Shown: positions 1,295-37,179 of the stretch, one piece after another
How positions within the stretch are numbered: position 1 is the stretch's first letter
How the letters are laid out: each line of letters begins with the position of its first letter
Virus record (IMG/VR): IMGVR_UViG_2909303794_000005
Direction: 5' to 3' (one strand)
Length of the DNA stretch: 37,179 nt
From: a virus
Lineage: Duplodnaviria; Heunggongvirae; Uroviricota; Caudoviricetes
The notes under the pieces: generated by a model
Seen by the model: the letters and a program-made list of their open reading frames with translations, nothing else
Databases searched by the model: none
What the model was told of the DNA's origin: nothing
Made by a program: the position numbers and the translations under genes

Positions 1295-2974
1295 ATGAAA
1301 ACTAAACTGTATTCGTATATTCGCTTCTCGTCTATGCGTCAGAGTGATGGTTCGAGTTATGAACGACAAATCAGGATGGCGAGAGAGATTGCGGCAAAGT
1401 ATGACCTTGAACTGGTAAATGATTATCAGGATCTGGGTGTATCTGCGTTTAAGGGTGCTAACTCCAAAACAGGGGCGCTATCTCGTTTCCTTGATGCAAT
1501 TGGTAGATCCGTTCCTGTTGGTAGCTGGCTATTCATCGAGAACTTGGACCGTTTATCCCGTGCCGATATTGTCAGTGCGCAGGAGTTATTCCTTTCAATA
1601 ATCCGTAGGGGGATAACCATTGTTACTGGCATGGATAACAAGATCTACTCGCTGGATACTGTTACCGCTAATCCGATGGACCTGATGTTCTCCATCCTTT
1701 TATTCATCCGTGGTAATGAGGAAAGCCAGACTAAGCGCAATCGTACTAACTCAAGCGCATTGATTAAGATTAAAGCTCATCAAGAAAATCCACAAAATCC
1801 GGCAGTGGCTATCGAGGAAGTTGGAAAGAATATGTGGTGGACTGATACCACTTCCGGTTATGTGCTGCCTCATCCGGTGTACTTCCCTGTTGTTCAGGAG
1901 ATTGTGGAATTACGGAAGAATGGACGTTCAACCGCCGAAATACTGGATCACCTTAACGAGACATATGCACCACCACCAGCGGTTAGTAATAAGAAGCATT
2001 CAAAATGGTCACGGGCAATGGTTGAAAGGTTGTTTCATACCCGCGCTTTGATTGGTATCAAGGAAATATCTGTAGATGGCGTTAACTATGAGTTAAAGGA
2101 TTATTACCCTCGTGTTATTGATGACCCTACGTTCTATCACCTTAAGAAAAATATTGGTGCTAGAGCATGGAACTTTGGAGACAAGGAAGAAGTTAAACCG
2201 ATCCCCCTGCTTAGTGGTATTGGCCTATTGAAATGTGATCATTGCGGTTGCGCTATGGTTAAAGTGAAGGGAACGAACAAACGTTCTGACCAGTATCGTT
2301 ATACATGTGATGCGACCCGTTCACGTAGACTTGATTGCGAGCATCCAAACTGGAGTTTTCGAGGTGATCAATTAGAGAAAGCTGTATTGCAATTGCTGGC
2401 TGATAAAATCTGGATTGCTGAGGACAAGGCTAATCCGGTTCCGGCGTTGAAAGTACAGGTTGATGAAATATCACGCAAGATTGATAACCTGATTGCCCTT
2501 TCTGCTATGACAGGAGCAACGAAGGAGCTAGCCGATCAGATTACTACCCTCAATAGCGAGCGTGAAACACTCTACAATCAGATCAAGATGGCAGAAGAGG
2601 AAATGTATTCTGTTGACTCTCAAGGCTGGGAGAAGCTCGCAGAATTTGATTTAGAAGATGTTTACAACGAGGAACGACTAAAGGTCCGGTTTAAGATTAA
2701 GCAAGCTCTAAAGCGGATCGGGTGTAGCAGGATTGACAGAAACAAAAACTTGTTTGTACTGGAATACATCGATGGAAAGACCCAGAGAGTTGTAATAGAA
2801 AATTCAAGAGGAACGAGGAAAGGACAAATCTTTGTCGATTTGAAGACCATCAATGATAGGCAGATTCTGGAGAGTAACGGGCTTGTTCTGCATCCATGTT
2901 TAGACATGCTGACAGATAAAGACTGGAAACCAGAAGAGGAAATACCAGGTCCATTACAGGAATTTGGAATTTAA
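1295..2974 (+). CDS. large serine recombinase (serine integrase/resolvase superfamily)
   Basis: N-terminal resolvase catalytic motif YIRFSSMRQ...RQ, Cys-rich zinc-ribbon segment CDHCGC...C...C, C-terminal coiled-coil; 559 aa is typical of large serine recombinases. Confidence 0.85.
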   Translation: MKTKLYSYIRFSSMRQSDGSSYERQIRMAREIAAKYDLELVNDYQDLGVSAFKGANSKTGALSRFLDAIGRSVPVGSWLFIENLDRLSRADIVSAQELFLSIIRRGITIVTGMDNKIYSLDTVTANPMDLMFSILLFIRGNEESQTKRNRTNSSALIKIKAHQENPQNPAVAIEEVGKNMWWTDTTSGYVLPHPVYFPVVQEIVELRKNGRSTAEILDHLNETYAPPPAVSNKKHSKWSRAMVERLFHTRALIGIKEISVDGVNYELKDYYPRVIDDPTFYHLKKNIGARAWNFGDKEEVKPIPLLSGIGLLKCDHCGCAMVKVKGTNKRSDQYRYTCDATRSRRLDCEHPNWSFRGDQLEKAVLQLLADKIWIAEDKANPVPALKVQVDEISRKIDNLIALSAMTGATKELADQITTLNSERETLYNQIKMAEEEMYSVDSQGWEKLAEFDLEDVYNEERLKVRFKIKQALKRIGCSRIDRNKNLFVLEYIDGKTQRVVIENSRGTRKGQIFVDLKTINDRQILESNGLVLHPCLDMLTDKDWKPEEEIPGPLQEFGI

Positions 2975-4378: not shown

Positions 4379-4948
4379 ATGATTCCAGTAATGGCTAAAG
4401 ATATTGTTTTTACTCCTAAATCCTCCCGTGCTGTAACTCCATCGGCATTAGAACAACGCATTCTGACTCACATCAAAGATAAGGACTTACCATTAGTCTT
4501 TCATGGCTTTCTGGGTGAGTTTAAAGGGCTTCATTCAAGAATTGCTCTAACATGTACCCGATGCGGTAATAGAGCCGACAAATCAGCTACTAACCTGCTT
4601 AATGAAGGTAAACGATGTGTTTGCTTCAATAGTGACTACTTTCAATATAAAGCGGGTGTGCCTTATCTCTATGTAATGAAGTCTGGGGATATTGGTAAAT
4701 TTGGTGTTACAAAGTCAATCATCAAGCGACGTGTTAATCTGGGTGTACGCAATCCCGGTCATAACTTTGATATTGTCTTTGCTGGTGAAATGCCATCAAT
4801 GAAACATGCACTAGCCACTGAAAGAGCAATAAAGAGATTACTGGATGTGGGTATAGGCGGGATTGAATACGGCAAAACTGAAACATTCCACTACTGCAAT
4901 AAATCACTAAACAATATAAAGAATATTGCAAGTGTGGAGTGGAACTAA
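4379..4948 (+). CDS. T5orf172/GIY-YIG-like domain protein with zinc-ribbon-like N-terminus
   Basis: RBS GTGAGG before ATG 4379; CTRCGN...CVC cysteine cluster, then YLYVMKSGDIGKFGVTKS...RR...GKTETF resembling the T5orf172 domain. Confidence 0.45.
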   Translation: MIPVMAKDIVFTPKSSRAVTPSALEQRILTHIKDKDLPLVFHGFLGEFKGLHSRIALTCTRCGNRADKSATNLLNEGKRCVCFNSDYFQYKAGVPYLYVMKSGDIGKFGVTKSIIKRRVNLGVRNPGHNFDIVFAGEMPSMKHALATERAIKRLLDVGIGGIEYGKTETFHYCNKSLNNIKNIASVEWN

Positions 4949-6438
4949 TGCAAGATATTAAAATTCATTTTCAAGATTACAGTTTCGTTAAGGTTGATTG
5001 CTCTCCTTCTATCGGAATGGAATTAAGAGATTATTTCTCTTTTGAGGTTGAAGGGGCTAGGTTTAGCCCCCGATACAAGTATTCAGGCTGGGATGGACGA
5101 ATAAGACTGTTTACGCATGAAAATACCCTACCAATTGGACTATTAAAAACATTGGGTGTCTTCGTTAAAAATATGGGGTATTCAGTCTGGATTGACCCGC
5201 GATTGCTTGAGAAGGAAGATGTAACCAAAGAACAGATTGATTCATGGATTGACTCTTTAGAAGTGTATTCCGGTTCCAATAAAATCAATCCTTACTGGTA
5301 TCAGCGTGAGGCAGTCTTTCAGGGTATTCATAATCGCCGTAGAATGCTGGTTCTTCCTACCAGTGCGGGTAAGTCATTGATTGCTTGTATGCTGTCTCGT
5401 TGGTACTTAGAGCATTACACCGGAAAGGTGTTAATCATTGTCCCGACTACATCGCTAGTGGTTCAAATGAGGGATGATTTCATCGATTATCGGTTATTCC
5501 CTTATGAAGCAATCCATACAATGATGAGTGGTAGCGGGAAACATCCGGGAGACAGGTTAATCACGGTTAGTACCTGGCAATCAGCTTGCAAGATGCCCCC
5601 TGAATGGTTCAAACAATATGGAATGTTGATAGTTGATGAATCGCATAAGGCTAGTGCCAAAAATATTACCAATATCATCAATGGAATGAATCATTGCCAG
5701 TTTAAAATCGGCATGACTGGTTCCCCGAAAGAATCAAAATGCCATCTTTTACAGTATGTCGGGCTTTTCGGTGATATTTCTAAGATCGTGAGTATTGACC
5801 GCCTGATGGAAGAAGGCCAGGTGACAAAACTGAAAATTAACTGTCTTTTCCTTCGTTATACCGATGAGGAATGTAGCGCGGTTAAGGGTAGAGAATATGC
5901 GGAAGAGATCAAGTATATTACGTCTAACCCACGACGTAATAAGTTTGCTTGTAATTTGGCGCTAAAACTCGCTAAGAAGGGCGAAAACGTATTCCTTATG
6001 TTCCGCAATACTAAGCACGGAAAACTTATGTATGATGCGTTACAGAAGGTACACGACAAGGTTTATTATATTGACGGTGGAGTTAAGACAGAAGAACGTG
6101 ATGAATTTAAGAAAATGGCGGAGGGTGACACCGGGATCATTTGTGTTGCGTCTTATGGTGTGTTCTCTACTGGTGTTTCAATTAAGAATTTGCACCATGT
6201 TATTTTCGGTCATCCAGTGAAGGAATCAACTATCGTTCGTCAGAGTATCGGTCGTGCATTGCGTAAACATGGTTCTAAGGATATTGCAACGGTCTGGGAT
6301 CTTATCGATCATTTGTGTATATTTGGTCGTAACGGAAAAATCAAGCATAAAAATTATGCGGTAAAACATGCACTTGAGAGAATCCGCTATTATCTGACCG
6401 ACAAGTTCAGCTATGCAACTAAAACAATTGCTATATAA
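4948..6438 (+). CDS. uvsW: UvsW-like SF2 DNA helicase
   Basis: ATG 4948 overlaps the upstream stop (TAATG) with GGAG 7 nt upstream. N-terminus MQDIKIHFQDYSFVKVDC and later blocks (LPTSAGKS Walker A, DESH, VASYGVFSTGVSIKNLHH, GRALRKHGSKDIATVWDLID) closely resemble T4 UvsW as recalled. The ORF track's upstream GTG at 4939 is less likely. Confidence 0.85.
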   Translation: MQDIKIHFQDYSFVKVDCSPSIGMELRDYFSFEVEGARFSPRYKYSGWDGRIRLFTHENTLPIGLLKTLGVFVKNMGYSVWIDPRLLEKEDVTKEQIDSWIDSLEVYSGSNKINPYWYQREAVFQGIHNRRRMLVLPTSAGKSLIACMLSRWYLEHYTGKVLIIVPTTSLVVQMRDDFIDYRLFPYEAIHTMMSGSGKHPGDRLITVSTWQSACKMPPEWFKQYGMLIVDESHKASAKNITNIINGMNHCQFKIGMTGSPKESKCHLLQYVGLFGDISKIVSIDRLMEEGQVTKLKINCLFLRYTDEECSAVKGREYAEEIKYITSNPRRNKFACNLALKLAKKGENVFLMFRNTKHGKLMYDALQKVHDKVYYIDGGVKTEERDEFKKMAEGDTGIICVASYGVFSTGVSIKNLHHVIFGHPVKESTIVRQSIGRALRKHGSKDIATVWDLIDHLCIFGRNGKIKHKNYAVKHALERIRYYLTDKFSYATKTIAI

Positions 6439-6440
6439 CA

Positions 6441-6472
6441 AAAAAGCGCCCACTAGAGGCGCTTTAATTTTA
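6441..6472. terminator. bidirectional terminator between convergent helicase and lysis-region genes
   Basis: AGCGCC / GGCGCT stem flanked by an A-run upstream and TTAATTTTA downstream. Confidence 0.5.
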
Positions 6473-6823
6473 TCCATTCCATCGTGATTTTTTCGATCTG
6501 GAATCGATATGCGTAAATGTTTTATATTTTCCTAAGCCGTATTGGGTAGGATATTTCCCATCAAGATAAGCATGAACAATATCAGGTGAGACACCCTTGA
6601 TAACAATGTCAGCCGCACGGCCTCGAACATGATAGCTATTGGCTGCCCCGCCTACATTCTTGTTATGAGTCGGACAACGGTTCCCACTGTTAATAATTAC
6701 TGGTTTCCCGAAGTGTTCGCGTACATCCTCAAGAATTACCAGTAATTCAGCGTCGATTGTATCATAATCACATTTTCCACATTTACATTTAAATTCCTTG
6801 CGAGAAAAATGTTTGCTTAACAT
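6470..6823 (-). CDS. peptidase M15 family cell-wall hydrolase (putative endolysin)
   Basis: RBS AAGGGGG upstream; FSRKEFKCKCGKC...IINSGNRCPTHNKNVGG...SYHVRGRAADI...THID matches the M15 zinc-peptidase signature (His/Asp/His ligands). Confidence 0.7.
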   Translation of the reverse strand: MLSKHFSRKEFKCKCGKCDYDTIDAELLVILEDVREHFGKPVIINSGNRCPTHNKNVGGAANSYHVRGRAADIVIKGVSPDIVHAYLDGKYPTQYGLGKYKTFTHIDSRSKKSRWNG

Positions 6824-6832
6824 ATTACCCCC

Positions 6833-7180
6833 TTAGATCATTTCGAAGATATAACCAATAAAGCGCATACCCTTGATATAATAAGGAGCAGTGCCTACAC
6901 ACACCGCGCGTGCATCGCCCAGACAGTTAAAGCTATAAGGATTAACCACATCAACTTCTTGCCCTACACGAAAACGATACTTAGGACGTTTAGCCAATGT
7001 AGCGACACAAAACACGGTCCCTTTTTCATGATCGCGGATACATTCTTTATATTGTTTATGTTTAACTCTCTTCGCCTCAAAATCATAGGTCATTGATTCA
7101 GGGCTAATGCCATTAATAAAAATACCGGAAAGCTGATCGACCGGATAAGTAGGAAATTCAGTAAAAATATTTTTAGCCAT
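6833..7180 (-). CDS. hypothetical protein
   Basis: RBS GGGGGT upstream of ATG; 115 aa, tightly spaced with the M15 gene (operon-like). Confidence 0.45.
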   Translation of the reverse strand: MAKNIFTEFPTYPVDQLSGIFINGISPESMTYDFEAKRVKHKQYKECIRDHEKGTVFCVATLAKRPKYRFRVGQEVDVVNPYSFNCLGDARAVCVGTAPYYIKGMRFIGYIFEMI

Positions 7181-7218
7181 GTTATACCCCCATAAGATTC
7201 TATGAGGGTATTTATTGA

Positions 7219-28484: not shown

Positions 28485-30392
28485 TTAGAACGATGTTACC
28501 CAACTACGGCCTCTATTTGGACGTCTGGCGATGTTTTTACGTTGTGGTCGTGTGATTGGCTTAGTTTCTTCGATTTGCTCGTTAGATTGCGATTTAGGAG
28601 CTTCTACGGGTTCTTCGACAACACGGTTTAAGCTGTCTTTCATTGCAATGAGTTTATCCCATGACATTTTTGAAAGGACGTAGCGAGAAGCCGCTGTAGC
28701 ATACACGGCGCAGTCGAGCGCCTCGTTTCGTGTCGCACCTGGATTTTTTACCCATCTCACGCCAGTAGTAGTACGCTTAACAGATTCACTTAAAAGCTGA
28801 TCGAGATAATCATCAGGAACGGTGTCTGATATTTCTAAGGCAATATGAGGATTATCTTTCAGGTTCCTAGCCAACATTTCACGAAATGCAGTTTTACCCA
28901 CGTTAACACCCAACATAAGCAATTCATGACCACCTGTGCGGGTAGGTTTAACCGGAATGATCGGAGCGTTACCAGCAGAACTACCTTTGATAGCGTGTAA
29001 GTTCTTCCACTTGCCGCAAATACGGTATCCAGCTTGAGTGAATCGACCGTTCGATGTATCAAGGAAGCTGGCGAGCATAGGAACACGATCACCCGATACA
29101 GTAGTAAATTTGGTTTTATGGAAGTTGATTAATCTATCCCATACAGGGGATTCATATCGTTCACAGTTATGATCGTAAAAGCTACGGTGATCCAGAATGT
29201 AAACCTTATCTTTCGCTACACCTAAGATGGTAGTTTCTGCGCGATCTAATTGCTGGTCAGTACCCGCACATAAGAAAATCACGTCATCAGGGATATTCTC
29301 GATAGAAACATCTGTTTTGAGTTGTTCCAGTTCATTTGCTTCTACTGCCGTGTCCTGATCGTCGTATACCTTACCTAACACGGTGTTATAAAATGATTGT
29401 AAATCAAAGGATTGCCACGCATGACTAAAATCAACCACACAAGCGCGGATACTACTGAAAGGTGAATACAGACGGCTAATCCAGAATCCTGCTACCTCAC
29501 TTTCACGGGTTGCTCTCCACTCTCCTTGTGCTACTGCCCTGATTCGTTCCCCTTCTGTCCATGCGTTCTTACAGTGGGGGCAAATATAACGAGCGGTATC
29601 AGGATCGGGTAAGTTCTTACCATCGATGTTACGCCATTCAAATTGAACGTTTTCCCACTCGATCACCTGGTGTTCCCCGCAATGAGGACACGGAACAAAA
29701 AACATACGCATATCGCTTGATAACCATTGCTGGTTAATGCTTCCCAGCTTACTGGTCGGGGTACTGGATACGACTAATCGACCTTCATCGCCAAAGGTAG
29801 TTAAACGGTTAGCAGCCAGTGCCACCGGATCACCTTCTTCTGAGGCTGTAGCAGCATCGATTTCGTCAAGCAATCCAACCTTTGCGGTCTTACCACGTAG
29901 GGTCGATGGACTGGTTAGCGATACCATGTAAAGGAAGTGATTCGTTTTTAGCTGGAGTTGGTTATTGTTGTTAACCGCATTGCGATCATTCTTGTCTGTA
30001 ACAACGTCTTTTAATGCATCACATGCTTCGATAGACGGTCGGATCTTACCAGCGAGATATTGAGACATTTCTTTAGCGGTTGATTGTCCGATAATCATAT
30101 TGCATGGATCGTTAGCCATCTGGTTAAACAGGATGCCGTTCAGGATGGTAGTCTTTCCGATCTGCGCACTGGTCATCAGAACATACTTTTTCTTATTCTC
30201 AAGGAAAGGAGCATCAATCATGCCTTTCTGGAATGACAGCAATTTAACTTTATCCCCAGCTTGAGGACCATCTACCAGCACCATATTCGCTTCGCACCAT
30301 TCCGATGGAAGGAGTTTAGGCGGTGGCGTAATATATTTGGCTGCATTTCTGAGAATCTTTTTTAATTTGGCCTTATTAGAAATCAGTTTCAT
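28485..30392 (-). CDS. terL: terminase large subunit (lambda gpA family)
   Basis: Walker [10 protein letters not shown], paired CPHCGEH...CPHCKN zinc-finger typical of GpA-type terminases, C-terminal nuclease region; RBS GAGGGT upstream. Confidence 0.9.
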
Positions 30393-30477
30393 GTAATTAC
30401 CCTCATTACGAAATATGAAGGTATTTATTAAATTGTTGATATTTTGATAAATACGGGTATTAATTAAAGGGGGTTGT

Positions 30478-31080
30478 ATGCTAATTAATCAGCAACAAAG
30501 AGATGAATTAGAATTAGCCTTGTCTTGTACCGATCATGAATATCGTTTGCCAGTTAAGCATAAGCATTTAAAAACCGACTACACTACATCTGGCTTTAGT
30601 CGTGAGGAAGCGAAAGAGATTTTAATAGAATTTTACCGCGATAATGGTTATACAGACGTTCACAACTTCTTTAAGAAGCATAGAACATCGCATACAGAGT
30701 TTCGGAGAGTCCGAGATTGGTTTGATTTTGATATCAAGCGTTATTATCGCATTGATGACGGTCCTATCTATCGGTTGCAGTGGAAGCCGATCCGAGAAGT
30801 GTTGAAACAGAAGAGATTGAATCACGCAATTACACGCTATCGTAACGAGGCTTTCAAGAAAGGCTATGGTGATACAAGGGAACTATTCGTTGAACTCGCT
30901 AACGTGCGTTATAGCCACTATTACAACGATCCTAAAGGGTTCTTTGAAGTGCTTCGCAAGGTTGATATTAGTCGGGGTACATACTATTCACGGTTGAAGA
31001 AGTACGGGATTAAGGCAGAGTTCTTTATGTCGGTTGACGATGGAGAACTTTTTCCTATAAAATGTAAGTCCTCTAAATAA
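30478..31080 (+). CDS. hypothetical DNA-binding protein with C-terminal HTH-like motif
   Basis: RBS AAAGGGGG; C-terminal [15 protein letters not shown] resembles the HTH of the two small proteins at 31116 and 34720. Confidence 0.45.
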
Positions 31081-31115
31081 AGGTGAACATTCACTTTAAT
31101 TTGGAGAAAATGACT

Positions 31116-31343
31116 ATGACTACTAAAGCTACTCGCGGTCGCCCTGCCCGTTTTAACGCTGAACAGATGGCTGATATTGCCTACGCTTACTATACAGCGG
31201 ATCGTGGTAAGGAAGCGAAAGAACAGATTCTTAGTGAACATGGGATCTCAATCGCCCAATTCTATAAGAATATGAAGAAGTTAGACATTAAATTCTATGT
31301 TCAGATCGGTGATGGTCAGATCGTAGAAGCAACAGGTTTTTGA
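31116..31343 (+). CDS. small AT-hook/HTH DNA-binding protein
   Basis: ATG 31116 has better SD spacing (GGAG 9 nt upstream) than in-frame ATG 31110 or GTG 31083; KATRGRPARF (AT-hook-like) and GISIAQFYKNMKKLDIK (IS3 OrfA-like HTH). Confidence 0.5.
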   Translation: MTTKATRGRPARFNAEQMADIAYAYYTADRGKEAKEQILSEHGISIAQFYKNMKKLDIKFYVQIGDGQIVEATGF

Positions 31344-31358
31344 GTTTTGATTCTCTTT

Positions 31359-31382
31359 GCCACTCTTCGGAGTGGCTTTTTT
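31359..31382 (+). terminator. rho-independent terminator
   Basis: GCCACTC TTCG GAGTGGC (UUCG tetraloop) followed by TTTTTTG. Confidence 0.7.
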
Positions 31383-31473
31383 GTATGTAAAACAATCTCG
31401 CCAGTTTTGGTGAGATCTATAGATGCCCTCAAAATTGAGGGGATGTACTCAACTCTGAGCGCATCTACAGATA

Positions 31474-31499
31474 CAAAAAAGCCCCTGAAATTCAGGGGC
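31474..31499 (-). terminator. rho-independent terminator after Rha-like operon
   Basis: 9 bp arms GCCCCTGAA / TTCAGGGGC followed on the minus strand by TTTTTTGTAT; the arm sequence is the same motif as the 34017-34201 iterons. Confidence 0.55.
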
Positions 31500-31507
31500 A
31501 AAAATTA

Positions 31508-32338
31508 TCACAGTCCGAAGACTTCCAGTGATCCAACATTCTGGCGGAGACGTTCAGCTGCTTTATTTTGAATCAGAATAGTGTTGTTCGGCTTAGGAAG
31601 ATTCAGAGTTGCTTTTTGTTCTTCTTCCAGAACACCCAATTCAACCAGCACCGGAAGCACATCAACAGTAAACTCAAGCTGGTAGTGAGCATTCATGCGG
31701 CAGAAAGACAGAGAAGAGTCATTAGCAACATACCCACACGGCTTGTTATTTTCATCATAGACGCGCTCAATGTAGCCAGCAGTACGCAAGGCCGTCAGTG
31801 CTTCTTTAACCTTCGTAGCGCCCTTTTTAGCGCCTAACAGACGTGTCATAGAATGGCTATCTACGGATTTGCGAATGTGTAGCTCAATCAGTTTTTTATT
31901 TTTGCGTTTTTCATCTAATGCCAGTTCGATCCAGTCTGTTTCTTCAAAGTGTTCATATGGATTAACCGGAACATTAGCTTTACCTTCTTTCATCAAACGC
32001 CATTCTTTAGCAATTTTGAAGCGAAGCGGTGCATCGTATCCCATAACCAGAGTATTACAGAGATCTTCATCCAGTTCATACATCGGGCGAGATTGATTAT
32101 TCTTATCAAAATATGAAGATTCTACAAAATACCCCAGCGCAAAATTGCGCCCGGCTAATTCGCTTCCTTTTTCAAGAGAATCAATCATGCGACGAAAATC
32201 ACGCATAACATCTTTATGATTCTTTCCGGTCAATTCAGCAATCTGACGGGTAGACATGGTCAGCGGTTTGGTGTTATCAACAACCAGAGACACGGAAGCA
32301 GTTTTAACAGCAGTATTCATAGTAGTAACAGTATTCAT
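31508..32338 (-). CDS. Rha-family phage regulatory protein (antirepressor-like)
   Basis: N-terminal TMSTRQIAELTGKNHKDVMRDFRRMIDSL matches the Rha-domain pattern as recalled; RBS AAGGGGA upstream. Confidence 0.7.
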   Translation of the reverse strand: MNTVTTMNTAVKTASVSLVVDNTKPLTMSTRQIAELTGKNHKDVMRDFRRMIDSLEKGSELAGRNFALGYFVESSYFDKNNQSRPMYELDEDLCNTLVMGYDAPLRFKIAKEWRLMKEGKANVPVNPYEHFEETDWIELALDEKRKNKKLIELHIRKSVDSHSMTRLLGAKKGATKVKEALTALRTAGYIERVYDENNKPCGYVANDSSLSFCRMNAHYQLEFTVDVLPVLVELGVLEEEQKATLNLPKPNNTILIQNKAAERLRQNVGSLEVFGL

Positions 32339-32427
32339 AGTATTAATTCCCCTTAAACGGTTTAATGATTTGGTCCTCCTAGTTCCGGCAGCATCACCGG
32401 AACAATTTTATTTATAATAGAAATTTA

Positions 32428-32760
32428 TTACCAATCGATTTCTACTTGGTCTTCTTCATAATAAGGAATCGCATATTCATAACGCCAGTTTTCGATGATT
32501 TCACGTTCTTCATTAGTAAGAAGGTGATTGCTAACTGGAGTCGCATTGTGATTACCAGCTTCGAATTGTTCGCGAACTTCCAGCATTGCATGAATACCAG
32601 TTAAGGACATCAGATCAAACGGAACATGCATACTACGGGAGATTGTTTCACGGGATACGCCCCAATCATTTTCTACATGGCTAGGGCTTACAGAAACGGT
32701 TTTGCCGGAGATTTTAACAGTCCAGTCATACAGGGATTTAGTGATGGTAAATTCTTTCAT
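32428..32760 (-). CDS. hypothetical protein
   Basis: RBS AAGAGGA upstream; 110 aa; first gene after the promoter/operator at 32817-32858. Confidence 0.45.
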   Translation of the reverse strand: MKEFTITKSLYDWTVKISGKTVSVSPSHVENDWGVSRETISRSMHVPFDLMSLTGIHAMLEVREQFEAGNHNATPVSNHLLTNEEREIIENWRYEYAIPYYEEDQVEIDW

Positions 32761-32816
32761 GTTACATCCTCTTTACAAATCTAGGTCAAATAGGTTCAAA
32801 GTTGTCAAGTGCGATA

Positions 32817-32845
32817 ATCATAAAAAAGTCAGAAAATTTTGTCAA
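32817..32845 (-). promoter_or_regulatory. sigma70-type promoter (minus strand)
   Basis: Minus-strand TTGACA, 17 nt spacer, TATGAT; about 55 nt upstream of the 32760 start. Confidence 0.5.
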
Positions 32846-32858
32846 TACCCCTTGACAA
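32839..32858. promoter_or_regulatory. palindromic operator-like site overlapping the -35 element
   Basis: TTGTCAA TACCCC TTGACAA, perfect 7 bp inverted repeat; more TTGAC/GTCAA half-sites at 32790-32880. Confidence 0.45.
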
Positions 32859-32880
32859 GACGCCAAAGGGTTGACCTAAC

Positions 32881-33333
32881 TTACAGCATATCTAAGCCTT
32901 CATCGTAACCGTAGAAGCCATTCTGAGAAGAGAAACAGATTGGCGCGTAGTCGTCGTCATCTTCGTCTTGTTCATCTCGTTCTGGGGCTTCCTGAGCGGG
33001 TTGTTTACCATAATCAGCCATAATCTGGTCAAGATCGGCGATCCCATAGTAAGAGCCTAAATCAACGTCATATTCACGAACATCAAACGGCAGGTCATCA
33101 CGAACAATAATTGCCGGAATGTTGTTGTATTGTTCACGACCTTCATCAGTAAAGCAGTCTACGATCACCGTAGGGCGACCATTACGTTTAAGAGCATAGA
33201 AAGCAGTTGAGAAATTGGAGTCTTCGGAATGACGAATGATGTTATAACCACGATTAGCGAAAACATGCATCATAGCCAGATTATCATCATGGTTCAGACC
33301 CAGAAGAATGAAAGGAGTTTTAGTATTGATCAT
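32881..33333 (-). CDS. hypothetical acidic protein
   Basis: RBS AGAGGA upstream; 150 aa with Asp/Glu-rich C-terminal region. Confidence 0.45.
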   Translation of the reverse strand: MINTKTPFILLGLNHDDNLAMMHVFANRGYNIIRHSEDSNFSTAFYALKRNGRPTVIVDCFTDEGREQYNNIPAIIVRDDLPFDVREYDVDLGSYYGIADLDQIMADYGKQPAQEAPERDEQDEDDDDYAPICFSSQNGFYGYDEGLDML

Positions 33334-34016
33334 AGTGGAAATCCTCTAAAAAGTGAATCAAAGTAAGTTCACTATTATTTATAACGAGAAATTTTTGTCT
33401 AATTTGAAAGGAATTGGTATTCAGTCGGCTTCGCCTCCTTCATAGATTTTGATTAAATCATCATCAAAACGAAGAAGTATCTTTAGAATATAAGAATCTT
33501 TCTTTTGGAGAAATAATAATCCGGAAGCAATTTAGCAACCGAAGGTTGCAATCCCGAAGGGATACCAATACCTTTCATGATCATTAAAGTGATCTAGAAT
33601 CATCTAGTAACCAGTTAACTACTATTATCTTCAAAGTGATTATTACTATCTTTCTAGAATCAGTTAGTAACTAGTTTAAAATCCCTTTCAAGAAAATCCT
33701 TTCAAAAGTGATTCTCGATGCCACGCAGTGGCGTCGCAGACGTTTGAGAGTGAGCGAAGCGAGCGAGCAAACTAGTTAATTCCTTCTAAGACCATCTAGT
33801 ATCATCTAGTTTAAATTAGTGTTACTAGAAGTAATTGGTTAGCGCTTCGCGCAGTCGGGCTACGCCCTCCTAATATCTTTTTGGTTATTTGTTGTTTTTG
33901 GTTTTACACATGAGCGTAGCGAATGTGTTATATAATATCTATGCACGCCCGATTCCCCGTTTTTGCCCCTCACTAAGTTAATGTTTTATAAAGAGTTTTT
34001 CTTACCAATCCTTTTC

Positions 34017-34201
34017 GGGGGCAAATTTCAGGGGCAAAAATTAGATTTTCAGGGGCAATTATTGGCATTTCAGGGGCAAAAATGAGGGGCAAAATCACCG
34101 TTTCCCAGAATTTCAGGGGCAAAAATATTGGGTTTCAGGGGCAAAAATGGGATGTGGAATCTAGGGTATTTTGGTTCAGGGGCAAAAATTCAGGGGCAAT
34201 T
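34017..34201 (+). repeat. iteron array: 9 direct copies of (TTC)AGGGGCAA(AAAT)
   Basis: GGGGCAA cores at 34018, 34031, 34052, 34073, 34086, 34116, 34138, 34179, 34193, spaced 13-41 bp; an inverted copy at 33961-33969. Confidence 0.8.
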
Positions 34202-34240
34202 TTCATAGTGTAGGGCTAGTGTAGGTTTGAAAATCCTTTG

Positions 34241-34298
34241 TTGACACTGTGTAGGATCGGTGCTACACTTGACAATTAGAGAAAAAATGTGGTATAAT
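34241..34298 (+). promoter_or_regulatory. tandem strong sigma70 promoters
   Basis: TTGACA (34241) -17- TACACT, and TTGACA (34269) -18- TGgTATAAT (extended -10, 34290-34298). Confidence 0.65.
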
Positions 34299-34662
34299 AT
34301 TTGTATTGAAAGTGAAAATTTACCGATTTTCCTTCCTATTGTTATCACCGTGTTAAATTGTTATATGTCTGTGAAGATTTGGATCTGAGAGAAAATCTTG
34401 TAACAAATCTTTACAATTCATAGCTCAATTAATGCTCACCGCTTTAGCAAAAAGTGCTATGCAATTTTCTAAATTGATTGAATAAACATCAATTTGGTTA
34501 ATTCGTGTTCTTCTCTTTAGCAATTCGTGCTGCGGTTTAACACATTTAACACGTCTGATAACATCTGAATAACATTTTAACATATCTCTGTTATAAATAC
34601 ATATATAAGAGATAAATGTGAGGGGTTGAAAAATAAAATACAATCCCCATATAAATAATAGT

Positions 34663-34683
34663 GAGCGGTTAACGCTCTTTTTT
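34663..34683 (+). terminator. weak terminator/attenuator before the 34720 gene
   Basis: GAGCG GTTAA CGCTC followed by TTTTTT, located before the AGGAGG RBS. Confidence 0.45.
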
Positions 34684-34719
34684 AAGAAATCATTAATCCA
34701 CATTGTAGGAGGATTCGAG

Positions 34720-34902
34720 ATGGCACGACCTGTTAAGTTCACTCGCGAAATCATCTTAGAAATGGCTAAACGCTACTTTGAGTTAACGCCGGGTGTGAGA
34801 ATTGAAGAGTGGTTTAAAAATGAGGGTATCGATAAATCAACCTTTCATAAACTCTTAAAGAAGTATGACATTAAAGTAAAGATTACCGCCGAGGTCTGGT
34901 AA
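34720..34902 (+). CDS. small HTH DNA-binding protein (paralogue of 31116-31343)
   Basis: Strong RBS AGGAGG 7 nt upstream; MARPVKF...NEGIDKSTFHKLLKKYDIK parallels RGRPARF...HGISIAQFYKNMKKLDIK. Confidence 0.5.
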   Translation: MARPVKFTREIILEMAKRYFELTPGVRIEEWFKNEGIDKSTFHKLLKKYDIKVKITAEVW

Positions 34903-34944
34903 TAACCTTTCACTGAGAATTATATGATGGCTTTAAAAATAAAA

Positions 34945-34978
34945 AAGCCTCCCTTGTTGCAGCAAAGGAGGCTTTTAG
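34945..34978 (+). terminator. rho-independent terminator
   Basis: AAGCCTCC ... GGAGGCTT stem followed by TTTT. Confidence 0.6.
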
Positions 34979-35021
34979 CATGAAACATTAAAACTAACAC
35001 AGAGTATTCAGGAGTATTTAT

Positions 35022-35963
35022 ATGTTATTTTCCGCTAACTTTTTCACTAACGAAGTAACCAACGCTAAAGCAGTTATCAAATTTGGCACCGAAGCAAACA
35101 AGAAGATTCAGCCGAAAGTTGTTGCTCATGTTTCCTTTGCACAGCAGAAATCCGCTTTCGCTGGCTTTAAAGCACATCGTGAAGCACTGATCGCGGCTGG
35201 CTTTGGTGTTGACGGTAAACTGCCTAACGGCATTCGTAAAGCAATCGACCGCGTTAAACCTGCTAAAGACGTTGCAGTAGACCACATCGTTACTTTTACC
35301 GTTAAGAACTCTTCTGAACTGTTCCACCTGGTTATTGCTGGTGATACTGCTATCGTTTCCGCTCCTAACATGGATTTTCAGGATACCGCTGATTGCCAGA
35401 TCACCTTCGGTCGTCGTAAAGAAGTTACCGGAAAAGCTAAACTGAACTTCACTAAATCCGGCAATCCTTACTTTGCTGTATTCTTTAACAGCCACGCTAC
35501 CGAAAAAGAAGTTGTAGAACTGGTTGCTTATGAAGGTGAAGAGAAAGAACGTATTGAATCTTGCGAAGCATTTCTGGAACTGGAAGCACAGGTGAATGCT
35601 GTTTCTCCTGTTGTAGAAGATCGCTTTGCTGCACTGGAAGCACAGATCGCAGAACTGAAAGCTGCGCTGGAAGAAAAAGACCAGATTATCGAAGCCCAGA
35701 AAGCTGAAATTGAAGAACTGAAAGCTAAAGAAGTTGCTCCGGTGGCAGTAGTTGAAAATGCGGCTGATGAGGCCGCAAATGATGAAGTAGAAGTGAAAAT
35801 CGATGTGATGCGTGATCCGATGGCTGCACTGCAATTACTTCGTTCTTTTAAGGGCAAATCTCATTTTTCTAGTGATGTAGAAGATGAGGAAGAAGAACAG
35901 AAACGCAATGCTGCAATGCTTCATGATGAAATGTACGGTACTAACTTTTCTTACTGCCAATAA
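35022..35963 (+). CDS. acidic coiled-coil protein with host-like (high-expression) codon usage
   Basis: RBS AGGAG 8 nt upstream; 313 aa; heavy use of CTG, CGT, GCT, GGT, GAA, AAA codons unlike the AT-rich surrounding genes; Ala/Glu-rich heptads and acidic C-terminus. Confidence 0.6.
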   Translation: MLFSANFFTNEVTNAKAVIKFGTEANKKIQPKVVAHVSFAQQKSAFAGFKAHREALIAAGFGVDGKLPNGIRKAIDRVKPAKDVAVDHIVTFTVKNSSELFHLVIAGDTAIVSAPNMDFQDTADCQITFGRRKEVTGKAKLNFTKSGNPYFAVFFNSHATEKEVVELVAYEGEEKERIESCEAFLELEAQVNAVSPVVEDRFAALEAQIAELKAALEEKDQIIEAQKAEIEELKAKEVAPVAVVENAADEAANDEVEVKIDVMRDPMAALQLLRSFKGKSHFSSDVEDEEEEQKRNAAMLHDEMYGTNFSYCQ

Positions 35964-36575: not shown

Positions 36576-36624
36576 TAGACGTTGACCCGTTCAACATCTT
36601 TCATACATTTATTTATAACGCGTT

Positions 36625-37179
36625 TTAAGACACATCAAATTCATCGTCTTCTTCTGGTTCTTGTTCTTCCGGTTCATCCATTAATGGTAATTCTTCTTCC
36701 TCGTCTTCTCCCAAATCTGCATTTTCGAACAAGTCCCCTACTTCATTTAAACGACGCTCGATGATCTCCCTTAGCTTATTCTTCAATGTTTTCTGATCAG
36801 TGGCAGATTCAAGAATTTCTAAAGCGTCGATTGTGGCGATCTGCAAAATAGTCTGTTTCACCTTCCCGCAATATTCCGCTAGTTCCTGTTCTACATAACC
36901 GACCGGAATCAGGAGATTCATTGCTTCCTGGTTCTCTCGTTCGGCTGCATCCGCTAATGCTCTCTCACGGCGTAATTTCTCTACGTCGATTTGTTCCTTG
37001 ACAGTAGTTTCTTTAAGCGGGTTGATAATATTTTTCAAGACCCATTCTGTTCCTTCTTTGGCTGGCACGCGTCGTGTATTGGTATTAAATGGCATTCCTC
37101 GTTCTTGCCATTTCTTAGCGGCGTTGATTGTATAGCCGTATAAACGGGAAATTTCTGTAAGGGTTAATTCTTCTTTCAT
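36625..37179 (-). CDS. terminase small subunit-like protein (Nu1-type HTH); start at or beyond window edge
   Basis: N-terminal LTLTEISRLYGYTINAAKKWQERGMPF then EKLRRERA resembles lambda Nu1 (winged HTH, W.E.GMP) as recalled; acidic C-terminal tail. Confidence 0.55.
   Translation of the reverse strand: MKEELTLTEISRLYGYTINAAKKWQERGMPFNTNTRRVPAKEGTEWVLKNIINPLKETTVKEQIDVEKLRRERALADAAERENQEAMNLLIPVGYVEQELAEYCGKVKQTILQIATIDALEILESATDQKTLKNKLREIIERRLNEVGDLFENADLGEDEEEELPLMDEPEEQEPEEDDEFDVS

Follow-up and report, generated by a model that had tools for sequence, protein, structure and literature searches.

The 37,179-nucleotide stretch of virus DNA analysed here (IMG/VR record IMGVR_UViG_2909303794_000005; Caudoviricetes), which we call the window, is a prophage of ~37 kb that carries three small genes, orf200, orf75 and orf60, encoding proteins with a common helix-turn-helix (HTH) domain. 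The three are true paralogues holding four copies of this domain, and their paralogy, fold class and conservation across the phage lineage are demonstrated below. With moderate confidence, we read the proteins as sequence-specific regulators acting at conserved sites other than the iterons of the same region, with orf60 as an autoregulator and the product of the neighbouring gene, orf313, as the iteron-specific protein. A preliminary description of this DNA had instead offered the HTH proteins as candidate iteron-binding regulators or replication initiators. That proposal is not supported: iteron type follows the orf313-like gene without exception, and never orf60, orf75 or orf200. The cassette to which orf60 belongs, together with a set of promoter boxes, makes for more interesting leads than the HTH family itself.

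One domain in four copies

The family was sought among the 326 six-frame open reading frames (ORFs) of at least 40 amino acids (aa) in the window. The preliminary description had reported three ORFs with a shared C-terminal motif, and both the ORFs and the motifs it quoted can be read directly in the sequence at the places it gave. BLASTP aligns orf75 with orf60 at E=2e-8 (35% identity over 52 aa), orf200 with orf60 at E=4e-4 and orf200 with orf75 at E=2e-4; since the last two alignments map to different parts of orf200, this protein carries the domain twice. In a jackknife, hidden Markov models (HMMs) built from the homologues of one protein and run against the 326 ORFs recovered only the other two, in all three directions (E-values from 3e-9 to 1e-4; next best match E>=0.66), which puts the shared motif well above chance. 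The same models found no fifth copy of the domain in the window. The ATG start of orf75 is the one annotated in RefSeq for a 97.7%-identical prophage, and it also agrees with homologues that open with MTTKATRGRP or MKKLGRPCRF. Homologues of orf200 (41-93% identical, in E. coli, Salmonella and Proteus) are all annotated as ‘hypothetical’. Orf200 and orf75 are probably co-transcribed.

Structure prediction, which the preliminary description had named as a check, came out in favour of the fold. The models from AlphaFold2 (AF2) contain a three-helix, homeodomain-like (tri-helical) bundle with helices 2 and 3 as the HTH, once in orf75 and twice in orf200. For orf75 (21-sequence alignment; predicted local distance difference test, pLDDT, of 82), helices span residues 15-27, 32-41 and 46-55 and strands residues 61-63 and 69-71, and residues 1-5 fall below a pLDDT of 50, a disordered N-terminus. 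The first unit of orf200 has helices at 42-56, 61-67 and 72-82 and strands at 86-92 and 97-99; the second has helices at 134-147, 152-161 and 166-175 and a strand at 180-186.

The suggested likeness to IS3-family OrfA proteins is borne out at the level of the superfamily. In Pfam scans, orf60 matches HTH_Tnp_1 at E=0.0015 (19.1 bits, under the gathering cut-off of 24.1), and neither orf75 nor orf200 matches it. Four of the 21 family members scanned match HTH_Tnp_1 at E<=0.1 and one matches HTH_7 (best E=0.088); none of the 21 reaches a Pfam threshold. Searched with a family profile, 1.84 billion representative proteins gave 30 matches at E<=0.001, and those outside the HTH family itself are mainly multi-repeat proteins with 3-7 matched repeats. 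Nine of the matches were scanned with Pfam: five are HTH_Tnp_1, HTH_7, HTH_23 or HTH_28 repeats, and the other four (P0048, P0057, P0064 and P0066), which are members of the HTH family themselves, have no Pfam match. Hhalign scores the family at 96% against the HTH_Tnp_1-type repeats and at 95% against the HTH_7-type repeats. The profile searches proposed earlier thus uphold the relationship, through hhalign and the weak orf60 score, but leave it below the Pfam thresholds. Together with the AF2 models, these results support placing the domain (three helices and a beta-hairpin) in the homeodomain-like/Hin-resolvase/IS3-OrfA HTH superfamily. Within it, the HTH family is a new branch, set apart by its C-terminal hairpin, which is still unnamed because the superfamily match sits below every Pfam threshold. 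A PDB sequence search with the family profile gave nothing below E=0.05, Foldseek against BFVD nothing below E=0.23, and a one-genome-per-species scan no confirmed relative.

The basic N-termini of the two small proteins had been likened to AT-hooks. The segments, TRGRPARF in orf75 and MARPVKF in orf60, are real, but that of orf75 aligns better with the GRP arm of HTH_7 domains: in the hhalign comparison its RGRPARF stands opposite GRPSVIT of the HTH_7-type repeats. The AT-hook core reads T-R-G-R-P-A-R in the low-pLDDT segment of orf75 and M-A-R-P-V-K, without the glycine, in orf60. RGRP is kept in orf75 homologues (LGRP in P0006) and ARP in orf60 homologues (AGQ in P0041), and no such arm precedes either domain of orf200. 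In Hin/resolvase-type HTH_7 domains, the GRP arm occupies the minor groove of an A-tract. The orf75 segment is best read as an N-terminal arm of this resolvase/Hin kind.

The iteron array and its probable partner gene

At most one mismatch allowed, TCAGGGGCAAWW occurs 11 times in the window against 0.6 expected. The array (table 1) contains a sub-series spaced ~21 bp apart, and the remaining, eleventh copy lies inside the palindrome at 31481-31499. We collected 51 loci for comparison, 41 of them close prophage relatives and the others more distant. Close relatives come in two types: type A has a AGGGGCAA array, and type B has about ten GTGTAGG repeats at the same place. Across the 32 loci in which orf60 was located (the window included), 20 combine AGGGGCAA with an orf313-type gene and 12 combine GTGTAGG with an alternative gene of 328-341 aa; discordant loci number 0/32. 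The proteins of the two types are alike only in their C-terminal halves (coiled coil, acidic region and tail), and their N-terminal ~190 residues differ.

The DNA between array and downstream gene is reshuffled. L008 (type A) and L009 (type B) share one orf60 allele exactly, as L002 (A) and L032 (B) share another. Two unrelated variants of the array-orf60 leader are found, which re-assort independently, and orf60 alleles co-vary neither with GTGTAGG motifs nor with the leader variant. Array and downstream gene stay matched across at least three recombination joints, which argues that those two work together. More distant loci extend the pattern, with iterons of ACTAGWAA at an 11-bp period in L043, GCTAGGGAT in L045 (Proteus), ATGCYAYTTT in L051 and WWCGATTAY in L046. 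Altogether there are six iteron types, each with its own version of the orf313-like N-domain. Over the same range, the STFHKLLK(K/R)Y helix of orf60 does not change between types A and B, L045 and L051, nor does the GISIAQ(F/Y)YK helix of orf75 between types A and B, L043 and L045; for orf200, the helix motif reads DISRGTYY in the window but DISRAYYK in L043. Co-variation with iteron sequence, as would be expected of an initiator or iteron regulator, is thus found for orf313 and for none of orf60, orf75 and orf200. In these loci, the three HTH proteins are independent of iteron type, and orf313 is a candidate iteron-specific DNA-binding protein.

Orf313 itself has no Pfam, PHROG, NCBIfam or PADLOC assignment, and a search for its homologues returned near-identical copies only. 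PADLOC matches of orf313-like proteins to LmuB were rejected as coiled-coil noise. We also note that orf313-like proteins form an unannotated, divergent family with a variable N-domain, a coiled coil and, in most types, a shared ‘MRHxS’ region; examples of gene and array pairs are 35022-35963 with 34015-34201 in the window and 14242-15243 with 13255-13372 in L010.

The genes keep their arrangement over long distances. The order terL / orf200-orf75 / variable minus-strand genes / ~1.4 kb of non-coding DNA / orf60 and an orf313-like gene / terS holds down to 41% identity. In L051 (Edwardsiella-type), the order is iterons, orf200-like, orf75-like, orf60 and orf313-like gene (orf377), all co-oriented, so the terL neighbourhood is inessential and it is the iteron module that the three HTH genes accompany. 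(At L051 7614-8354, the orf200 homologue is split into ORFs of 121 and 117 codons, a frameshift or pseudogene.) Orf60 always precedes an orf313-like gene, also in contig L048 and in L046, a 168-kb T4-like contig. The latter has the cassette at 4894-6625, between the counterparts of T4 genes 3 and 2, which lie only ~100 bp apart in T4 itself. Its 64-aa orf60 homologue (P0057) is preceded by hairpins rich in GC, ~13 WWCGATTAY repeats and a promoter-like TTGACA/TATAAT region, and is followed by a hairpin and by genes for an orf313-like protein of 204 aa and a coiled-coil protein of 80 aa.

By its constant company, orf60 is obligately paired with an iteron array and an orf313-like gene and is an integral part of a portable cassette of iterons, small HTH gene and specificity protein. 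The cassette has passed between temperate phages and a lytic phage of the T4 type. It consists of GC hairpins, phased iterons, a promoter, the small HTH gene and a protein whose N-domain can be swapped, in at least six specificities. If it were a portable origin with its initiator and regulator, it would represent a natural modular exchange of origins and a source of orthogonal DNA-binding pairs.

Candidate promoter boxes and the proposed regulatory reading

The box DATAAATA occurs 11 times in the window. Nine of the 11 lie in the 10% of the DNA that is non-coding, at most 130 nt 5' of a gene start on the same strand, a placement that is far less common for composition-matched 7-mers. Almost all transcription units of this phage have such a box in front; the genes concerned are orf81, a lysis-side gene (6833-7180), terL, orf200, Rha, orf150, orf60 (twice) and orf94. 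The boxes are kept before the same genes in L043, L045 and L051, and relatives also have one before terS. The orf200 and terL boxes, back to back, are conserved within an otherwise diverged intergenic alignment. DATAAATA resembles the TATA box of T4 late promoters. The latter consist of an 8-bp TATA box without a -35 element (PMC2988020).

Around orf60, the order of box, 5-10 nt, hairpin and T-run is kept in L010, L043 and L045, and L046 has a -10 box and hairpin. A GC palindrome with a T-run stands ~30 nt before the orf60 ribosome-binding site in every version, and the GAGCGGTTAACGCTC palindrome of the window is a plausible operator for a dimeric HTH protein. The hairpin between orf60 and orf313 is conserved in L010 and has an equivalent between the two genes in L046. 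Further upstream, the region has features that would fit an origin (phased repeats, an adjoining stretch of 31% GC and a strong promoter), and DnaA boxes show no enrichment in the non-coding region.

These elements suggest a mechanism in which orf200, orf75 and orf60 would control transcription at targets kept in all members of the family, the candidates being the palindrome at the orf60 promoter and the regions of the DATAAATA boxes. Orf60 would be the autoregulator of the iteron/orf60/orf313 cassette, and orf313, probably a replication initiator, would use its variable N-terminal domain to read the iterons. The flexible basic arms of orf75 and orf60 would be placed where such arms lie in the DNA minor groove, and orf200 would be a tandem fusion of two arm-less domains.

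Several points weigh against this reading. The regulatory role is drawn from fold, position and elimination, and a DNA target has been identified for 0/3 proteins. The GAGCGGTTAACGCTC hairpin could equally be a terminator or an RNA 5' stem-loop, and the iterons could serve as a set of operators and not as an origin. Orf313 is without a recognisable DNA-binding or Rep domain. One orf313-like relative does match RepM (RepM_Acin), at E=0.001 and 18.5 bits against a cut-off of 250; we rejected a RepM identity for the family, as this weak match in one member was unreproduced in the others. The E-values of the remote multi-repeat matches add up several weak repeat matches. In addition, the 32 loci share ancestry and are not independent, so the co-variation argument rests on mosaicism and on the six iteron types.

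The opposite assignment, in which the HTH proteins, orf60 and orf75 above all, bind to the GGGGCAAAA iterons and serve as iteron-dependent regulators or initiators, draws on the predicted HTH fold, on two of the genes lying near GGGGCAAAA-containing DNA and on the good fit that an HTH with a GRP arm would have to a site with a G-rich core and an A-tract. The GGGGCAAAAA elements that the preliminary description saw beside two of the genes exist, but the one on the orf75 side is the terminator of the Rha operon. A terminator scan identifies the 31474-31499 palindrome as an intrinsic terminator, with an 8-bp stem (6 GC pairs), a 3-nt loop and T6, 9 nt past the Rha stop codon, and type-B phages have the palindrome at 31481-31499, which several type-A phages lack. 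It is kept independently of iteron type, and the argument from adjacency therefore fails. With iteron type always tracking the orf313-like gene and identical orf60 alleles standing beside unrelated iterons, we consider iteron binding by these proteins quite improbable. It is also possible, if rather unlikely, that they are accessory or architectural partners of orf313 at an origin, assisting an initiation complex rather than controlling transcription. Their sites would then be the CTAG-rich boxes, the GC mini-hairpins or the AT-rich DNA of the 1.4-kb region, or the conserved C-terminal part of orf313. Such a role would fit the constant company of orf60 and the iteron/orf313-like cassette (even in a T4-like phage), the L051 layout with all three HTH genes between iterons and orf313-like gene, and the conserved non-iteron features of the region, namely the cluster of eight CTAG in 232 bp and the recurrent triloop hairpins on GC stems. 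Yet the region is no more than a putative origin; DnaA boxes are unenriched, GCGAAGC hairpins are modestly enriched, and an interaction of the HTH proteins with orf313 is hypothetical.

A third role would make the HTH proteins activators or promoter-specificity factors at the DATAAATA boxes. The placement of nine of the 11 boxes and their retention in three distant loci speak for it, as does the parallel conservation of the box and of the recognition helices of all three proteins; scans of the phage's proteins detected no gp55/gp33-like factor. T4 late-type boxes, however, are read by a sigma-2-like protein and not by an HTH; an HTH protein at a -10 position would more likely repress, host RNA polymerase could read the boxes, and the T4-like cassette has a normal TATAAT instead. 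We hold this role to be improbable. The bolder version, in which the three are the lineage's own promoter-recognition or switching factors for T4-late-like boxes, is decidedly doubtful too; if true, a temperate phage would have Hin/OrfA-type HTH domains as the building blocks of a global switch in transcription. That orf200 and orf75 serve DNA packaging, recognising a cos site from their divergent position beside terL, is very unlikely. They do adjoin terL in most relatives, and the HTH repeats of P0052 (96% to the HTH family) also match the Pfam model of the Sf6 small terminase, but the phage has a separate small-terminase gene, and in L051 the pair lies beside orf60 and not terL. Hardly credible, finally, is the notion of insertion sequence (IS) OrfA remnants or mobile-element debris without phage function. 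It can point to the weak HTH_Tnp_1 similarity and to one database source that names an orf60 homologue (P0044) ‘Transposase’. Against this, no DDE/rve ORF is adjacent, the only IS of the window is an IS1 22 kb away, and the three genes are intact and syntenic, with proteins that are conserved all the way from E. coli to Proteus and Edwardsiella-type prophages.

A narrower candidate role, with orf200 and orf75 as regulators of the terL promoter specifically, was set aside, weakened by their place beside orf60 in L051.

Table 1. Positions of the HTH genes, of the elements around them and of other prophage genes in the window.
Feature	Position	Strand	Remarks
orf200	30478-31080	+	200 aa; N-terminal helix and two tandem HTH + beta-hairpin domains; ORF, BLASTP, AF2 model m0d7610e2ceb3
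orf200 domain 1	~30595-30774		residues ~40-99; no RP arm
orf200 domain 2	~30868-31056		residues ~131-193; no RP arm
orf75	31116-31343	+	75 aa, single domain; RGRPARF arm, three helices, C-terminal beta-hairpin; AF2 model mcc1c1ffe85ee
orf60	34720-34902	+	60 aa, single domain; MARPVKF arm, HTH, one C-terminal strand; first gene 3' of iteron/promoter region, directly 5' of orf313
orf313	35022-35963	+	not of the HTH family; ~190-aa N-domain, coiled coil, acidic region, short conserved tail
Iteron array TTCAGGGGCAAAAAT	33961-34201	+	nine direct copies at 34015-34201; one inverted copy at 33961-33972 (minus)
DATAAATA boxes	942-949, 30446-30453, 34592-34599, 34650-34657	+	
DATAAATA boxes	7209-7216, 30422-30429, 32409-32416, 33376-33383, 36610-36617	-	
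GATAAATA box	30446-30453	+	24 nt 5' of orf200; candidate phage-type promoter element
Mirror AATAAATA box	30422-30429	-	29 nt 5' of terL; back to back with the orf200 box
Two TATAAATA boxes	34592-34599, 34650-34657	+	5' of orf60; candidate orf60 promoter
Palindrome/hairpin GAGCGGTTAACGCTC, then T6	34663-34677	+	just 5' of orf60 ribosome-binding site; candidate operator or terminator
Sigma-70 consensus promoter	34269-34298	+	TTGACA-18-TATAAT, extended TG, 12/12 matches; between iterons and orf60
Hairpin, 14-bp stem	34943-34976		orf60-orf313 gap; strong terminator on minus, weak one or attenuator on plus
orf200-orf75 intrinsic terminator	31359-31376	+	GCCACTCTTCGGAGTGGC, then T6; 16 nt past orf75 stop
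Rha-operon intrinsic terminator	31481-31499	-	GCCCCTGAATTTCAGGGGC, then T6; plus-strand reading contains one iteron-like 15-mer, half of the terminator
Large serine recombinase	1295-2974		separate gene
UvsW-type helicase	4939-6438		
gpA-type large terminase (terL)	28485-30392	-	
Small terminase (terS)	36625-37179	-	phrog_57, E=2.8e-15

Further observations concern the non-coding DNA. Two overlapping hairpins (ATCTCGCC..GGTGAGAT and CCCTCAAAATTGAGGG) occupy 31395-31444, between the convergent orf200-orf75 and Rha terminators. The sigma-70 promoter would give an untranslated RNA of ~380 nt ending at the 34663 hairpin (T6, 34663-34685); this leader could be a regulatory, immunity or primer RNA. 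Eight CTAG fall within 232 bp at 33594-33825, within 24-nt repeats TCTAGAATCAnnTAGTAACnAGTT, against 68 in the whole window, and relatives have similar CTAG-rich boxes in the corresponding non-coding DNA. Despite sequence divergence, every relative carries several short stems, rich in GC and with loops of three bases (GAA, GCA, GTA or their complements, e.g. GCGAAGC), 5' of the iterons: 33400-33900 in the window, 12880-13180 in L010, 4740-4930 in L043, 10290-10790 in L045, 4950-5100 in L046 and 6930-7390 in L051. As a statistical signal, the GCGAAGC mini-hairpins were dismissed; their enrichment is modest, and with 3/7 window copies in the region they are too few.

Prophage setting and likeness to known systems

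The 97.7%-identical copy of the prophage resides in E. coli strain 2017.18.04CC, inserted in ycdX beside ghrA; ycdX is likewise the insertion site of the prophage in the window. Among 5,426 complete E. coli genomes, 57 match the 4.6-kb region, and a contig index lists the exact orf200 sequence in 118 blocks (many NCBI contigs). The prophage also encodes CapR/T5orf172 proteins, an endolysin, tail genes, a fused protease-capsid gene and a portal, and the best match of its terminase is 45% identical. Two side observations belong here. An IS1 lies in the tail-gene region (8549-9246, minus strand; insA, 91 aa, 8971-9246; insB, 167 aa, 8549-9052), and terL and terS form separate units ~6 kb apart with the regulatory region between them, which is unusual for gpA/Nu1-type terminases.

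Neither a megablast of 30000-35100 nor a tblastn of orf200, P0057 and the 204-aa protein of L046 gave a match among 50,697 phage records; by this measure, no cultured phage appears to carry the HTH family. The phage lineage is an uncharacterised temperate one of Enterobacterales, and the HTH genes lie in its conserved early/replication-control region. Among the prophage proteins scanned, there was no match to a CI/Cro-type repressor, a replication initiator or a sigma-like factor. For a lineage without a recognisable CI/Cro or initiator, the three HTH proteins are the main candidates for its regulatory circuit. In addition, the genes are listed as ‘hypothetical’ in E. coli, Shigella, Salmonella, Proteus and Edwardsiella genomes, and naming them as an HTH family would mend this annotation.

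Among known systems, the Hin/Gin invertases and Tn3-type resolvases carry the related HTH_7 domain next to a serine-recombinase catalytic domain, whereas the proteins described here stand alone at 60-200 aa, without one. They further differ from HTH_7 in the extra C-terminal beta-hairpin, in their scores below the Pfam threshold, in the ARP (not GRP) of orf60 and in the armless domains of orf200. The OrfA proteins of IS3 elements (HTH_Tnp_1) have a leucine zipper after the HTH; here, the beta-hairpin takes its place, scores stay under 24.1 bits, there is no OrfB/DDE partner and no frameshift site, and the genes belong to a conserved phage core.

By position, orf60 can be likened to Cop-type repressors such as CopR of pIP501, which are small and encoded just upstream of plasmid rep genes and to which it is not known to be related in sequence. 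That is, orf60 is a small DNA-binding gene between a promoter with repeats and an initiator-like gene, with a palindrome at its own promoter; it differs in being phage-borne, and its function is only inferred. Orf313, which is outside the HTH family, recalls lambda O and its lambdoid relatives as well as plasmid Rep proteins, in that a variable N-domain co-varies with phased iterons and the C-terminal part is steadier. Its putative initiator function apart, the differences are that the iterons lie 0.8-1.7 kb 5' of the orf313-like gene instead of inside it and that homology to Rep or O ends with the one weak RepM match.

Finally, oriE of T4 combines direct repeats, clustered at even spacing, with a host-type promoter and small genes (PMC3016281). 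Its repEB and repEA, which we tried and rejected as homologues of orf60 and orf313, are ORFs of 45 and 50 codons antisense to gene 5, and the L046 proteins are unmatched in T4 (tblastn). The likeness is one of place and layout: the L046 cassette, too, lies in the gene 1-3-2-4-53-5 baseplate region of a T4-type genome.

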